A stretch of DNA of 32,613 nt from Candidatus Margulisiibacteriota bacterium. GTDB taxonomy: Bacteria > Margulisbacteria > WOR-1 > O2-12-FULL-45-9. Shown one piece after another: positions 24,001 through 30,000 of the stretch. The stretch's first letter is position 1. Each line of letters opens with the position of its first letter. The position numbers were made by a program. The stretch covers positions 1 through 32,613 of the forward strand of contig JAYEOW010000039.1 in NCBI GenBank assembly GCA_034723395.1. The letters are read 5' to 3'.

Positions 24001-27000
24001 CAAATTCGCAAAAAAGCGGGGCCGATAACATTTTTCTCGGGGAGAAACCCCCAAAAGCGGCTGTCGGCAGAGGCGGGACGGTTATCACCCATAACAAAAT
24101 AATGGTCATCGGGAATTTGGACCGGCCCGAAATCGGCAAAATCCTGGTTCATCGGATGGCTCTCTTTAATCTTCTCCCCATTAATATAAATAATGCCATC
24201 TTTTAGCTCGAGGACCTCTCCCGGAAACCCAACCAACCTTTTGATCAGATCTCTTTTTGGAGAGCCGACAGGCGCCACTTCTCTAAAAACTACAACTTCC
24301 TGGCGGCGCGGGAGCCTAAAATGGTAGGAGACCTTATTGACTACGATCCGGTCTTTAATATTTAATGACGGCTCCATCGAGCTTGATGGTATCCAAAAAA
24401 CCTGGACAAAAAACGCGCGGATAATAAGCGCCAGGATAAAGGCGACAACGATAGTTTCGAGCCAGTCAAAGAGCCAGTGATTTAATTTACTTTTCTTCTC
24501 CACTAGGTGTTCTTTCTTCCACTCTGGTAGCCTTGCTACCGATCCTCTTTCTTAAATAATAAAGTTTTGCCCGTCTGACTTTACCTCTGCGGATAACATT
24601 GACCTTCTCAAGGCGCGGTGAATGCACAGAGAAGGTCCTTTCAACCCCAACCCCCTGAACAATCCTTCTAACCGTGAAGGTGGCGCGATTCCCGCCCCCC
24701 TGGCGCTTAATGACCAACCCTTCAAAACCGTGGCTCCGCTCTTTCCCCCCTTCAACGATCCGGGTAAAGACCTTTACGACATCTCCCACGTTGAACTTAG
24801 GAAAATCCTTTTTCATTATTGATTTTTCGATATCTAAAATAACAGTACTCATTGCAATCTCTTCCTCCTAGCGGCCTAGCAGCCTATCTAATATTATAGC
24901 AATTGCCGAGCGAACTGGCAAATGGTTGTAGTCACTTACCCCTTTGATCGGCTCAAGCACAGCGTCAGCCTTCTCAAGAACCTCGTCTGTCATCCCCCAA
25001 CCGGTCCCAAAAAGGACCAGGTAAGGGCCCTTTGAAGCTTTGATCTCTTTTCTAAGCTTCTCAAAAGTTACCGCCCCTTTCGGCTTTGCTGAAGTAGCGA
25101 TAACTTTTACATTTTTCGGCAGTTCCGCCAAAACGTCATCCAGATTCTCTTTTACAGACAACAGCTTAAACGCTTCCGCCCGCGTCCAGTTGAATTCCTG
25201 GCTGGCTTCGTCCATCCAGAAATCAACGATCCGATTGGCAAAGGCCATCTGCGCTTTCAGCGGATTGACCACAAAATATTTTTTTACTCCATAAGTTAAT
25301 GCGGTGCGCGCTATATCATGGAGATCGAAACCGGTAATACAGGTGGTTACGATATCCTTCCGCTTGTTATAGATCGGATGATGGACCAAAGCAATATAAA
25401 TGTTGCTCATATTAGTCCAAAAAGAATCCCGCTAAACTCTTTTTGTCTTCCTCGGTTAAATTTACTCTGGCCAAAAGTCCAGGATAAAGCCTCAGCGTTT
25501 TTTTTAATGATCTTTCTCTCCGCCAGGAACTAATTTTTTTGTGGTCTCCCGAAAGCAAAACTTCGGGAACCTTCTCACCATTATGCTCATCCGGCTTGGT
25601 ATAGCTTGGATAATCTAAAAGGCCGTTATAAAAAGAATCCCGCCTAACCGACTCATCTTCTTTAATAACCCCCGGAACCTGGCGGGCAACCGCATCAACC
25701 AGGACCATCGCCGGGATTTCTCCCCCGGTCAAAACATAGTCGCCGACCGAGATCTCCTCGTCAACCATCTTCCGGACACGCTCATCTACCCCTTCATAAT
25801 GCCCGCATACAATTGTCAAATGTTCATACCCTGACAGGTCTTCCACTTTTTCGTGGGTCAACCGCCTCCCGGTGGGGCACATCAAAACCACGCGCCCTCC
25901 GGCACTAGAAATCGCCTTTGCCAAAACGTCCGGCTTCATTACCATCCCCGGACCACCGCCATACGGAGTATCATCAACTGTTTTGTGTTTGTCCGAGGCG
26001 TAATCGCGGATATTAACTACTTTTAAACTTAAAAGGCCCTTTTTCTGGGCCTTTTTAAGCAGACTCTCACTCATCGGTCCCTGAAACATCTCAGGGAAGA
26101 GAGTTAGGATATCAATGCGCATTAGATCTGACGGATTTCTTGGATTACCCCGTCTTTTACTATGATCTCGGTTCCGCCAACTTTTTTATAAAGATTATCA
26201 CCAATCCCAACCATTACCGGCCCTTCCAACGGCCCTTGGACAAACTCTGATCCGATCTGTAATTTCTTCGCTTCTTCAATCTTCATCAAAAGATCGCTCT
26301 TGGCCGCCGCCTGTTTTGCTTTTTCCTCGGTCATCTGGTGCTTAAAGGCAGCTGCTCTCTGGTTTAATCCCTTCTTTTTCAGATTGTCTAAATAGATCTT
26401 GCTTCTTTGGTCTAACTGAGAGGTCTGAGCGTCAATATTTGCGACTGCCCTTTCCAGCTCCTTTTGCAGGTTTTGCTTAAACGCATCGGTAACAATTGCC
26501 TTGACCATTACAACTCTTTTTAACTCGATCAATCTCTTTTCTGCCATTTTTTCCTCCTGTTTATATGCTTTTCTTCTCCGACTTTTCATCGTCGGTTAAT
26601 ATTTCAACGGTAATTTTCTTATGTTGTTTTGCCGCTGCCGCTTTGGCAATTGCACGGATGGAATTTGCGATCCTCCCCTCCCGTCCAATAACCTTTCCAA
26701 CATCTTCCGGCGCAGTACGAATCTCAATGATCGCTACGGATTCCCCAACGGTCTCACTAATACTTATTTGATCAGGTTTATCAACAAGCGCTTTTACTAT
26801 ATATTCTACTAGTTCTTTCATGTCGATTCCTCCTGTTAACTTTTCGGGGCCTCTTTCACCTCCTCCCTAGCTTTTTCTTCTACTTTTGGCTCTTCTGTTT
26901 TTTTCTCCTCTGTCTTTGGCGGTTCAGCTCCTTCTTTTGCTTCACCTGCAACTTCAGGTTTTTTCTCTCCCTCGGCAGCCGCTTCTGTTTTTATTTCCGC

Positions 27001-30000
27001 TTTTGGTCTTCTTTTATGTAATGATGCGAGATCAACCGGAGGAAGAACGCCAGCCTTACCTAGAAGGATTCTAACTCTTTCGGTCGGCTTAGCCCCTTTT
27101 TTTACCCATTCAGCGGCTTTTTTCTTATCAACATTAAAAATCGAAGGTTCAGCTAACGGATTATACTGACCTAAGGTATCAATCGCCATCCCTTTAGTTG
27201 CCAATGAGTCATCTTGAATGATAATATTATAAATCGGCCTCTTTTTTGTCCCTTTTCTTTGTAGTTTTATCTTTGCTCCCAATGTAATTTACCTCCTTTC
27301 TCCTACGCCCCTTCTACGCACTTCGTGCTTCGGAGAGCTTTGGAGAACTTATTATTATAGCGACCTGATTGCGCTACATTAGTATAGACGCACAAACAAG
27401 AATTATACCAAATTATAGGAAAAACGTCAAACAATCCTTGAGAGGTATGCTTCAAAAGTTGAAGTTAGGTCCTCGATCGAATCCCCGCCAAATTTTTCAA
27501 GGAAAGCAGCCGCGATTTCAATCGCCACGACCGCTTCGCCAATCACCGCCGCCGGTTCAACTGCCGAAATATCCGAACGCTCAACAAATGCCTCCGAGGC
27601 CTTTTTTGTCACCAGATCAACCGATTTTAGAGGTTTAACCAAGGTTGCGATCGGTTTTACCGCCGCACGGAGAATGATCGGCTCCCCATTGGTCATTCCA
27701 CCCTCTAAACCGCCTGCATTATTGGTCTTTCTTTCAAACCCTTTATCTTTTTTGTAAAATATCTCGTCCTGCATCTTTGAGCCCGGGGTTTCGGCCACTC
27801 CAAAACCAACGCCAACCTCCACCCCTTTAACCGCGGGAATGGCCATCAATACACGAGCCAGATTCCCATCTAATCTTCGGTCCCAATGGACATGGCTTCC
27901 CAACCCTACCGGTGATCCGGTAACGGTGACTTCAATTATTCCCCCCAATGTATCTCCATCTTCCCGCGCCTTATCGATCGTTTTTTTCCACTGCTTCTCG
28001 CTTTTTACTTCTCCGATCTGTACTACTTTACTAAAAACATTTATCCTGAATTCGGAAAGGAGTTTTTTGGCGATCGCCCCAACGGCAACTTTGGCCGCGG
28101 TCTCTCTGGCAGATGCCCGCTCTAAAATATTTCGAACATCCTTCTGGTTATATTTCAGCGCGCCGGGAAGGTCGGCATGTCCGGGACGGAGCTGAGCAAT
28201 TGGTTTATCGAAGAATTCCTGGCTCCGGTTATCGACCCGCAAAGCGATCGGACTGCCGATCGTCTTTCCGTCTCTAACCCCCGAAGTTAGTTCAACCTTA
28301 TCCTTTTCGATCTTCATCCTGGCGCCGCGGGCGTACCCCTGCTGGCGCCTTTCCAATTCGCGGTTAATGTCGTTCTCAGAAAGTTTTAAATTTGCGGGGA
28401 TACCTTCGAGAATAGCAATTAACGCGGGACCATGTGATTCACCGGCGGTTAAATATCTAAGCATTGCGAGAGGATTATAGCATGGGGTAAAATGATAGGC
28501 AATATGTTATAATCTTGCGCAAAGGATGGTGCTTTAATGAGATCAGACCGTGCTAAAAAGGGATTAGAAAGGGTTCCCAATCGCGCCCTTGTTTACGGGA
28601 CGGGGGTTACCAGGAAAGGGATGCAAAAACCGTGGATAGGGATCGCTAATTCATACACTAATTTGATCCCCGGACATGTAGATATGCGGCCGCTGGCCGA
28701 AGCGATCGCAAACGGGATCTTCGCGGGGGGCGGGCAGGCTTTTCAATTTGGCCTTCCCGGCATATGCGACGGCGTAGCCATGGGACACCTGGGGATGCAT
28801 TACTCTCTCCCTTCCAGGGAACTGATCGCCGATTCTGTAGAATCTGTCACCCAGGCCCACGCCTTCGACGGGATCGTCCTGCTGACCGCATGCGATAAAA
28901 TAACTCCCGGGATGCTTATGGCCGCCGGCCGGCTGAACATTCCCGCTATCGTTGTAACTGCCGGCCCTATGTATTCCGGCCGCCATAACATGATCAAAAG
29001 ATCTCTGGTACGCGATACATTTGAGGCGCTGGCCTCTCATAAATCAGGGAAGATTGCCGCCCAGGAGCTGGCCTGCCTTGAAATGGAGGCCTGTCCCGGA
29101 GCCGGAGCCTGCCAGGGGCTTTATACAGCTAACACTATGGCCTGTTTGACCGAAGCGATGGGAATGTCTCTTCCTGATTGTGGAACATCCCTTGCTGTTT
29201 CTGCTAAAAAGAAAAGGATCGCCTTTGAATCCGGAGAAAAGATCGTTGAACTTGTAAAGAAAAATATTACTGCCCGCACAATCCTAAATTCCAACGCTAT
29301 TTACAACGCCGTTGTAATGGACAACGTCTTGGGGGGCTCCACTAATTCTGTTTTGCATATCCCGGCAATCGCGCATGATGCAGGAGCAGATATTTCGCTT
29401 GATCTTTTTGACGAAGTCAGTAAAAAAGTTCCGCATATTACCAATTTGCGCCCGGGCGGCGATTATTTTATGGAAGATTTCCATTTCGCCGGCGGAGTGC
29501 AGGCCGCCCTGCATGTCATAAAAAATAAGATAAAGAATAATCCTACGGTCACAGGGAAAAGCATCAAGCAGCTGGCAACAGAAGGGAAAATCGCAGACCA
29601 CGATATTATCCGCTCCCTGTCAAAGCCCTATCATAAAGAGGGCGGCATGGCGGTGCTCAAGGGAAACATTGCGCCCAACGGCTGTATCGTAAAACAAAGC
29701 GCGGTCTCCCCAAAATCTATGAAGTTTAAAGGGAAAGCGGTAGTTTTTGAATCTGAAGAGGCGGCGATGAAAGCCATTCTCGGCAAAGAGATAAAGCCCG
29801 GAATGGTGGTTGTCGTGCGTTATGAAGGGCCAAAAGGCGGTCCCGGGATGAGAGAAATGCTGGCGCCGACGGCTGCGATTGCGGGAATGGGGCTCGGCGA
29901 ATCGGTCGCCTTAATTACCGACGGAAGATTTTCGGGCGGGACCCGCGGCGCTTGCATTGGCCACATTTCTCCGGAAGCGGCCGAAGGCGGACCGATCGCA

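Follow-up and report, generated by a model that had tools for sequence, protein, structure and literature searches.

Absence of the signal recognition particle from a Margulisbacteria genome and from sampled members of its phylum

Textbooks and current papers treat the signal recognition particle (SRP) as conserved in all organisms, and it is called so in a passage of PMC7844537. Natural losses have nevertheless been published. SRP loss was described for Parcubacteria (OD1)/CPR by Nelson & Stegen 2015 (PMC4508563), and for CPR bacteria also by Moreira et al. 2021 (PMC8080830); the relevant passages name ffh and ffs, and report that no genome of the lineage yielded ffh or the SRP RNA gene. A scarcity of SRP homologues was remarked for Elusimicrobia, a non-CPR phylum, by Harris & Goldman 2021 (PMC7987157), where a statement made in passing, based on GenBank protein searches, has Ffh and FtsY mostly not found and links the scarcity to long SecY branches. 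In the laboratory, Streptococcus mutans is described as surviving loss of the SRP (ffh, ftsY and SRP RNA deletion; passages of PMC8546722), and in Escherichia coli, suppressor mutants in which initiation or elongation of translation is slowed are described as bypassing it (passages of PMC7844537 and PMC8299109). No published report of SRP loss in Margulisbacteria was found.

The window considered here, the whole 32,613-nt stretch of DNA that was analysed, is one contig of a Margulisbacteria genome of 1,676,655 bases (1.68 Mb; 55 contigs, no N). A preliminary description had stated that Ffh, FtsY and SRP RNA are missing from this assembly, and the profile, phmmer/tblastn and nhmmer searches all bore this out. 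With all 29 candidates in the genome scored, the SRP GTPase domain (PF00448) scored no higher than 16.4 bits, with a cut-off of 22.7, and the Ffh model TIGR00959 gave at best 11.7 bits against 473. The Ffh M domain (SRP_SPB, PF02978), which is methionine-rich and binds signal sequences and RNA, had no match in the genome. The SRP RNA model RF00169 had none at E<=10, and RF01854 and RF01857 had none each. When E. coli Ffh and FtsY were searched against six frames of the raw genome, default phmmer returned nothing at E<=10, phmmer --max gave a best E of 0.25, and tblastn a best of 0.7. A custom full-length Ffh profile built from 35 sequences (hmmsearch --max) scored highest on IF-2, at 17.3 bits, and nhmmer and a motif scan for SRP RNA (conserved domain IV) found nothing in the raw genome. 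Ffh, FtsY and SRP RNA are truly absent from this assembly.

All genes of the locus lie on the minus strand, in the order aroC / rpsP-khpA-ylqD-trmD-SPOUT-rplS-lepB-rnhB, and ffh is not among them. The gene for ribosomal protein S16, rpsP (nt 26836–27282), is preceded by aroC (chorismate synthase, nt 27427–28464; PF01264, 371 bits), which occupies the place that ffh takes in many bacteria and is the neighbour that the preliminary description had named. Its use there as evidence of loss is weak when taken alone, because among 44 informative loci from other bacteria no more than 33 have ffh upstream of rpsP. The aroC-rpsP spacer is 144 nt long and contains a promoter-like site on the minus strand (nt 27402–27430; TTGACG, 17 nt, TATAAT, with TG; 11/12 matches in a consensus scan). 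This putative promoter would make rpsP the first gene of an operon of its own, which is intact within the contig.

The absence had also been claimed for the whole phylum, single-contig genomes included, and the wider searches agree. The sample consisted of 146 species genomes, all MAGs or SAGs of 51–100% completeness, none confirmed closed. Neither Ffh nor FtsY was found in any of the 146 with PF00448, a run in which the best 20 first-look candidates were scored per genome and stretches of 311–1718 bases were left out in six genomes; PF02978 and RF01854 likewise drew a blank in all 146. RF00169, run with the stricter Infernal filters that apply to RNA searches on more than 40 genomes, had no match over its cut-off in the 146 and three of 17–18 bits at E<=1. 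With laxer filters it reached no more than 14.9 bits in five near-closed genomes (1, 1, 4, 5 and ~80 contigs). The control, SecY, was recovered from 133/146 genomes and from all 72 of high quality, with full-length matches at normal scores (328–384 bits), and genomes in a single contig, 95% and 98% complete, are also without SRP genes.

At E<=1e-5, PF00448 matched in 14 of the 146 genomes. One match was FeoB, while the other 13 were frames of 384–424 aa scoring 124–151 bits, which look like FlhF, in agreement with the preliminary description. The FlhF model TIGR03499 matched all five of the 13 frames that were tested (214–254 bits against a cut-off of 174), and the same five scored only 68–97 bits on the Ffh model, with its cut-off of 473. 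A three-frame layout, the flhA-flhF-flhG arrangement, is common to all 13 loci, as in L009, where flhA lies upstream and a MinD/FlhG-like gene downstream. FlhF is a third SRP-type GTPase, a flagellar placement factor without an M domain. It is the sole SRP54-family domain remaining in the phylum but, present in 13 genomes only, it cannot explain targeting in the other 133.

The searches used do detect SRP parts in MAGs. Five MAGs with ffh adjoining rpsP all gave Ffh and FtsY, at 218–269 bits. In a 'Bacteriovoracaceae'-seeded phylum, strong PF00448 matches were seen in 66/81 genomes, and RF00169 was detected in 64 of these 66, a measure of RNA sensitivity in MAGs; on 14 named control genomes RF00169 missed one and left three more under its cut-off. 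The remaining 15/81 genomes had no strong PF00448 match among the best 20–34 first-look candidates, which were those scored in such large runs, and RF00169 was found in none of the 15. That protein and RNA vanish together from these genomes is what loss of the pathway predicts. Ffh/FtsY (PF00448) was found in 0/121 sampled genomes of a phylum seeded by an 'Elusimicrobia' MAG; neither protein was found in any of the 81 sampled from a phylum seeded by an 'Omnitrophota' MAG, and PF00448 in 0/81 from one seeded by a Patescibacteria-group MAG. The SRP has been discarded repeatedly, in at least 4–5 separate lineages, the Margulisbacteria phylum included. The earlier statement that it is otherwise universal is therefore wrong, given three other phylum samples without it, a subgroup of a fourth, and the published losses. 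Margulisbacteria are a further case of a little-known pattern already published for other groups.

Other export parts are kept, in agreement with the preliminary description. SecA, SecY, SecD, SecF, YidC, YidD, trigger factor, LspA and LepB are all present in the genome; SecA, SecY and YidC look ordinary, and the yidC neighbourhood is canonical. YidC is encoded by one copy of ~220 aa, without a P1 domain and with a tail of ~14 aa. A single YidC match was found in 59/61 genomes of the phylum (frames of 214–337 aa), and neither those 59 nor this genome yielded a second paralogue whose tail is long, basic and ribosome-binding. S. mutans survives without SRP thanks to YidC2, and the tail of YidC2 has a role in this. 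YidC here has neither a long basic tail nor a second copy, so the only natural compensation known is lacking. Membrane proteins still have to be targeted: a crude gene call yielded about 1590 ORFs, 128 of them with at least four hydrophobic segments and 52 with at least eight. Biosynthesis genes in the window alone include ilvB/N, ilvD, an ilvE-like gene (aminotransferase IV), aroC and pyrB. The term 'free-living', applied earlier to the phylum, was read from gene content and does not stand as an observation.

Margulisbacteria resemble the Parcubacteria/CPR in the undetectable ffh and SRP RNA gene, and in a short-type YidC without a long basic C-tail. They differ in that ftsY, beyond the two genes named in the CPR passages, is gone too. 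CPR genomes are tiny (0.5–2.1 Mb in the Patescibacteria-group sample, against 1.68 Mb here) and, as described in those passages, do without most biosynthesis and are interpreted as symbionts, whereas the window carries biosynthesis genes; judged on window content, a strongly reduced biosynthesis of the CPR type was not seen. The Elusimicrobia offer another non-CPR phylum, but in Margulisbacteria the RNA was searched for as well, and SecY scores are normal. S. mutans is likewise a bacterium living without SRP, but there the SRP was deleted in the laboratory, from a species that otherwise keeps it and has two YidC paralogues, whereas the loss in Margulisbacteria is natural and accompanied by one YidC. 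In the E. coli suppressors, Sec/YidC insertion is described as continuing without SRP at slower translation, a plausible enabling condition, although these are laboratory mutants.

Most probably the loss is genuine, and targeting is left to the SecA, SecYEG, SecDF and single short YidC that remain. The whole SRP pathway (Ffh, the receptor FtsY and the 4.5S/SRP RNA) would have been lost, probably in a single event that predates the divergence of the sampled phylum members, and no dedicated substitute would have taken over. Inner-membrane proteins would be delivered by this general machinery that was kept, to which YidD, alongside YidC, and trigger factor also belong. We consider this account, taken as a whole, reasonably probable. 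For targeting, translating ribosomes would be captured directly at the membrane, and slow translation or small cells may make this adequate. E. coli SecA can bind ribosomes and nascent chains. By analogy with the E. coli suppressors, S. mutans and Parcubacteria, the SRP can apparently be dispensed with.

A dedicated factor, non-homologous or too diverged, might instead have replaced the SRP, either as a protein or as an RNA-protein particle, and might be common to, or transferred among, SRP-less lineages. We regard this as possible though doubtful. To our knowledge, other organisms retain co-translational targeting across all three domains of life, which counts in its favour, as do the roughly 128 polytopic membrane proteins still encoded and the recurrence of loss in at least 4–5 separate lineages, which could reflect a common enabling gene. 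However, narrow looks, short of a proteome-wide screen and of a kind that a non-homologous factor would escape, yielded no candidate: seven scanned open frames under weak PF00448 P-loop matches all belong to ordinary families, the top match of the full-length Ffh profile is IF-2, and a Met-rich M-domain-like protein was not found. Gene neighbourhoods also argue against a substitute, with no gene upstream of rpsP common to 11 SRP-less loci and the window, and nothing unusual around yidC. That an unrecognised co-translational targeting device (either a new factor or SecA, YidC or trigger factor in a new role) replaces the SRP, perhaps having spread between lineages, seems unlikely.

Alternatively, the SRP genes may exist but never have been assembled or binned, being on a second replicon or in an assembly-breaking region. 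All genomes are indeed metagenomic or single-cell and only 51–100% complete, but three unlinked genes would have to escape from 146 genomes, 72 of high quality with SecY in every one, and from the single-contig genomes too, while MAGs of another phylum routinely yield Ffh, FtsY and the RNA, and the rpsP operon is unbroken in its 32.6-kb contig. This is very improbable. We give hardly any credence to a search artefact, in which the Ffh, FtsY and SRP RNA of these lineages would escape the first-look filter or the models. The limited number of candidates scored in large runs (20–34), the stricter Infernal filters above 40 genomes, and the RF00169 controls missed (1/14) or under cut-off (three more) would allow for it, but the own-genome runs scored every candidate, the raw genome stayed without a match when phmmer --max, tblastn, hmmsearch --max and nhmmer were run on it unfiltered, RNA sensitivity was 64/66 in MAGs, and FlhF, a more divergent relative in the same GTPase family, was detected at 124–151 bits.

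With true loss as the preferred reading, the list of bacteria that are naturally SRP-less, a short one, gains a phylum whose biosynthetic genes are ordinary and which has more than 100 polytopic membrane proteins, and according to the same searches the list is longer than published. Membrane-protein targeting without SRP becomes testable by comparison, for which the 'Bacteriovoracaceae'-seeded phylum, with SRP-bearing and SRP-less genomes side by side, is the best material. Both ffh and ftsY are in the GTDB bac120 marker set. COG0541 is given as one of five markers in a passage of a 2025 genome census (PMC11740963). Since Ffh/FtsY serve as universal markers, estimates of completeness, and counts of diversity that rely on markers, will be biased against SRP-less phyla.

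The remainder of the rpsP operon has several features of its own. The S16 protein is 148 aa long (E. coli rpsP, 82 aa), with PF00886 on residues 9–67 and a C-terminal extension rich in Lys, Glu, Ala and Pro. It is followed by genes for a KhpA-type KH-domain protein (ylqC-like, nt 26561–26821; PF13083, 83 bits) and a YlqD-family protein (nt 26122–26589; PF11068, 106 bits). The latter fills the slot of E. coli rimM, and an E. coli RimM query had no match in the genome at E<=1e-3. Between trmD (tRNA m1G37 methyltransferase, nt 25412–26122; PF01746, 218 bits) and rplS (ribosomal protein L19, nt 24487–24852; PF01245, 142 bits) lies a gene for a SPOUT-type SAM-dependent RNA methyltransferase (nt 24868–25410; PF09936, 230 bits), with homologues in the same slot at loci L038, L052, L062, L074 and L091. 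The start of lepB (signal peptidase I, nt 23970–24503; PF10502, 167 bits) overlaps the end of rplS, and rnhB (RNase HII, nt 23347–24054; PF01351, 129 bits) closes the co-directional run.

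Searches for the signal recognition particle (SRP) covered the whole source genome of the window, an assembly of 1,676,655 bases in 55 contigs with no N. All 29 candidates for the SRP GTPase domain of Ffh, FtsY and FlhF (PF00448) were scored, none above 16.4 bits (cut-off 22.7), and the Ffh model TIGR00959 reached at most 11.7 bits against 473. Neither the Ffh M domain (PF02978) nor, at E ≤ 10, any of the SRP RNA models RF00169, RF01854 and RF01857 had a match anywhere in the genome. All 14 named control genomes responded to the three protein models, and 13, 12 and 12 of them to the respective RNA models (10, 3 and 4 over cut-off); one of these controls, Synechococcus, showed all SRP parts.

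As the whole-genome search uses a first-look filter, the test was repeated on the raw genome. With E. coli K-12 Ffh and FtsY as queries, default phmmer returned nothing at E ≤ 10 among stop-to-stop frames of at least 30 aa, and the best E values were 0.25 by phmmer --max and 0.7 by tblastn. A profile combining the E. coli Ffh sequence with 34 full-length Ffh frames, taken from MAGs of many phyla, reached 17.3 bits at best, in a frame encoding IF-2. Intergenic DNA held no SRP RNA-like sequence detectable with E. coli ffs (nhmmer, short-word blastn) or by a scan for the domain-IV motif. Open frames beneath seven of nine weak PF00448 matches proved to be ordinary P-loop proteins (a ParA-like protein, two PilB/PilT-type ATPases, a thymidylate kinase, an ABC ATPase, a SpoIIIAA/R3H protein and a Mur ligase). 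A P-loop match at the end of contig C54, considered as a cut ffh, was rejected: it has a shikimate-kinase-like N-terminus and only 37 open codons.

Across 146 species genomes of the phylum, PF00448 was matched at E ≤ 1e-5 in 14, one of which was FeoB. The other 13 matches lie in frames of 384–424 aa with a C-terminal G domain, each flanked by a frame of about 290 aa and a P-loop frame of about 300 aa. All five that were compared with NCBIfam models passed the FlhF model (214–254 bits against 174) and failed the Ffh model (68–97 bits against 473), and one of these five loci is flanked by FlhA and a MinD/FlhG-like protein. The M domain and RF01854 were found in 0 of 146 genomes, and RF00169 in none over its cut-off (three matches of 17–18 bits at E ≤ 1); when five near-closed genomes (1, 1, 4, 5 and about 80 contigs; 95–100% complete) were searched with laxer filters, its top score was 14.9 bits. 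Scoring in large runs was confined to the top 20–34 candidates per genome. The absence of Ffh, FtsY and SRP RNA put forward in the preliminary description is thus upheld both for the source genome, where filtered and raw-genome searches agree, and across the phylum, where the GTPase matches are FeoB or FlhF-like frames.

Absence of the SRP is no peculiarity of Margulisbacteria. Five MAGs were chosen for rpsP loci without ffh (public labels Elusimicrobia, Omnitrophota, Bacteriovoracaceae, Planctomycetia and Altimarinota); PF00448 was missing throughout four of them and matched once, at 141 bits, in the remaining one. Five MAGs in which ffh adjoins rpsP all carried Ffh and FtsY (218–269 bits). 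Samples of whole phyla were seeded by the MAGs G146, G147, G150 and G148 and are named here by the public labels of the seeds. PF00448 was found in 0/121 genomes of the 'Elusimicrobia' sample and in 0/81 of the 'Altimarinota' sample, whose genomes measure 0.5–2.1 Mb and whose label NCBI places in the Patescibacteria group. The single match in the 'Omnitrophota' sample (1/81), to which the 'Planctomycetia'-labelled MAG also belongs, is FlhF, lying between FlhA and a MinD-like gene, leaving Ffh/FtsY at 0/81. In the 'Bacteriovoracaceae' sample, PF00448 was matched in 78/81 genomes, strongly (E ≤ 1e-60, mostly two or three per genome) in 66. RF00169 was present at E ≤ 1e-3 in 64 of those 66, which puts the sensitivity of the RNA model in MAGs at about 97%. 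The other 15 had weak PF00448 matches or none, and SRP RNA was detected in 0/15; judging by scores and frame lengths, the weak matches in 12 of them (E 1e-7 to 1e-44) are probably FlhF-like. This sample shows that the protein and the RNA disappear together inside one phylum. The SRP had been called otherwise universal, a wording that does not survive these counts: Ffh/FtsY are absent from 121/121, 81/81 and 81/81 genomes of three samples, and strong matches are missing from 15/81 of the fourth.

Parts of the published record point the same way. Parcubacteria are described as lacking the SRP, with neither ffh nor ffs detected in any genome, in a passage of Nelson & Stegen (2015, PMC4508563) that also notes a short-type YidC without a long basic tail and proposes small cell volume as one reason for the lack. 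Two SRP subunits are given as absent from Vampirococcus and many other CPR bacteria in a section of Moreira et al. (2021, PMC8080830), and an excerpt of Harris & Goldman (2021, PMC7987157) records SRP homologues in few Elusimicrobia and suggests loss. The SRP GTPase is still in use as one of five universal markers, according to a portion of a 2025 census (PMC11740963). SRP genes listed in a paper on TM7x were not taken as its own, since the APY09_ tags denote, in the relevant part of that paper, the host strain XH001n. A literature search, supplements being outside its scope, found nothing linking the SRP with Margulisbacteria, Omnitrophota or Bacteriovoracia, and a phrase search on lacking ffh gave nothing about natural loss.

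The remaining export machinery is in place. E. coli queries recovered SecA (848 bits), SecY (364) and YidC (133) from the source genome, as well as YidD and MnmE, and family searches found trigger factor, SecD, SecF and LspA; with LepB in the window, each of the SecA, SecY, SecDF, YidC, trigger factor and signal peptidase (LepB, LspA) genes listed in the preliminary description was recovered. The usual clients of the SRP are also present, since a crude gene call (1591 ORFs) gave 225, 128 and 52 ORFs with at least two, four and eight hydrophobic segments, respectively.

Loss of the SRP itself is, in our judgement, very highly probable. It is improbable that missed genes and a search artefact jointly account for the result: all genomes are MAGs or SAGs, but the SecY control was found in 133/146 and in all 72 high-quality genomes, the stretches left out of the search (311–1718 bases, too little for hiding three genes) touch only 6/146, and the unfiltered searches of the raw source genome were negative as well. 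As to what takes over, the most economical mechanism, and probably the correct one, is direct capture by general machinery with no dedicated substitute: SecA, SecYEG and YidC would themselves capture, at the membrane, the ribosomes engaged in membrane protein synthesis. Targeting without a substitute can work, since slowed translation allows E. coli to do without the SRP (PMC7844537 and PMC8299109) and S. mutans survives without SRP (PMC8546722).

A hidden dedicated substitute seems less likely; narrow looks at YidC, trigger factor, the position upstream of rpsP and Met-rich proteins yielded no candidate. YidC of the source genome (about 220 aa, no periplasmic P1 domain) ends in a Lys-rich tail of 14 residues similar to that of E. 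coli, within the usual rnpA-yidD-yidC-jag-mnmE neighbourhood. Of 61 high-quality genomes in the phylum, 59 have exactly one YidC match, in frames of 214–337 aa; compensation of the YidC2 type was rejected, there being neither a second paralogue nor a long ribosome-binding tail. Trigger factor (C29:67691–68770, + strand; 360 aa) retains its C-terminal arm domain and the N domain that binds ribosomes, and has no FKBP/PPIase domain. This was rejected as an adaptation to SRP loss, the domain being missing in just two families, that of the source genome (0/3) and one more, the only other family of the order in the sample (0/7); because trigger-factor-sized frames of many other families in the phylum contain FKBP, the deletion does not track SRP loss. 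No unknown gene is common to the rpsP-upstream position in the window and 11 loci of SRP-less groups, which share only trmD, rpsP, rplS and rnhB. A search for Met-rich, M-domain-like proteins gave nothing convincing, the top scorers being membrane permeases and one small acidic protein (C29:57579–57983, + strand; 134 aa, 11 Met in 80 residues). The latter was dismissed as an M-domain analogue for want of a hydrophobic groove-like stretch.

In the window, ORF calls and Pfam matches place a co-directional series on the minus strand: aroC (chorismate synthase, 27427–28464), rpsP (S16, 26836–27282), a KhpA-type KH gene (26561–26821), ylqD (26122–26589), trmD (25412–26122), a SPOUT RNA methyltransferase gene (PF09936, 24868–25410), rplS (24487–24852), lepB (23970–24503) and rnhB (23347–24054), with ilvD divergent on the opposite strand from 28537. 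Ffh is absent ahead of rpsP. The 144 nt aroC-rpsP spacer contains a promoter-like site close to the consensus (TTGACG, 17 nt, TATAAT; 11/12 matches), and a strong Shine-Dalgarno sequence precedes the TTG start of rpsP, so that rpsP looks like the predicted head of its own operon. Chorismate synthase does lie upstream of rpsP as had been described; the force given to that arrangement is reduced. Among 80 loci from other bacteria retrieved with the window TrmD, 44 contained rpsP and extended more than 1.6 kb upstream of it; only 33 of the 44 had ffh in that stretch, making this synteny weak evidence by itself.

In three loci from the 'Omnitrophota' sample (L044:1350–2615, L084:6460–7722 and L105:446–1717), the gene immediately preceding rpsP is aroA (EPSP synthase), which like aroC belongs to the shikimate pathway; that two SRP-less groups have a gene of this pathway in that position may be chance. 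The S16 protein of the window has 148 aa against 82 in E. coli, the approximately 80 extra residues forming a low-complexity tail rich in Lys, Glu, Ala and Pro. The YlqD-family gene occupies the position of E. coli rimM, and an E. coli RimM query found no homologue in the source genome at E ≤ 1e-3. Homologues of the PF09936 protein fill the same slot between trmD and rplS in loci labelled Syntrophus/Syntrophales, Bacteriovoracaceae/Bacteriovorax and Halanaerobiaceae. The last 17 nt of rplS are shared with lepB, and the last 85 nt of lepB with the longest rnhB frame, reflecting either tight gene coupling or a true rnhB start further downstream. Three ORFs of the window are without a Pfam match (251–904, +, 217 aa; 4962–6068, +, 368 aa; 15874–16713, −, 279 aa), and in an 804-aa ORF at 16851–19265 (+) a RelA/SpoT domain is the sole recognised part.
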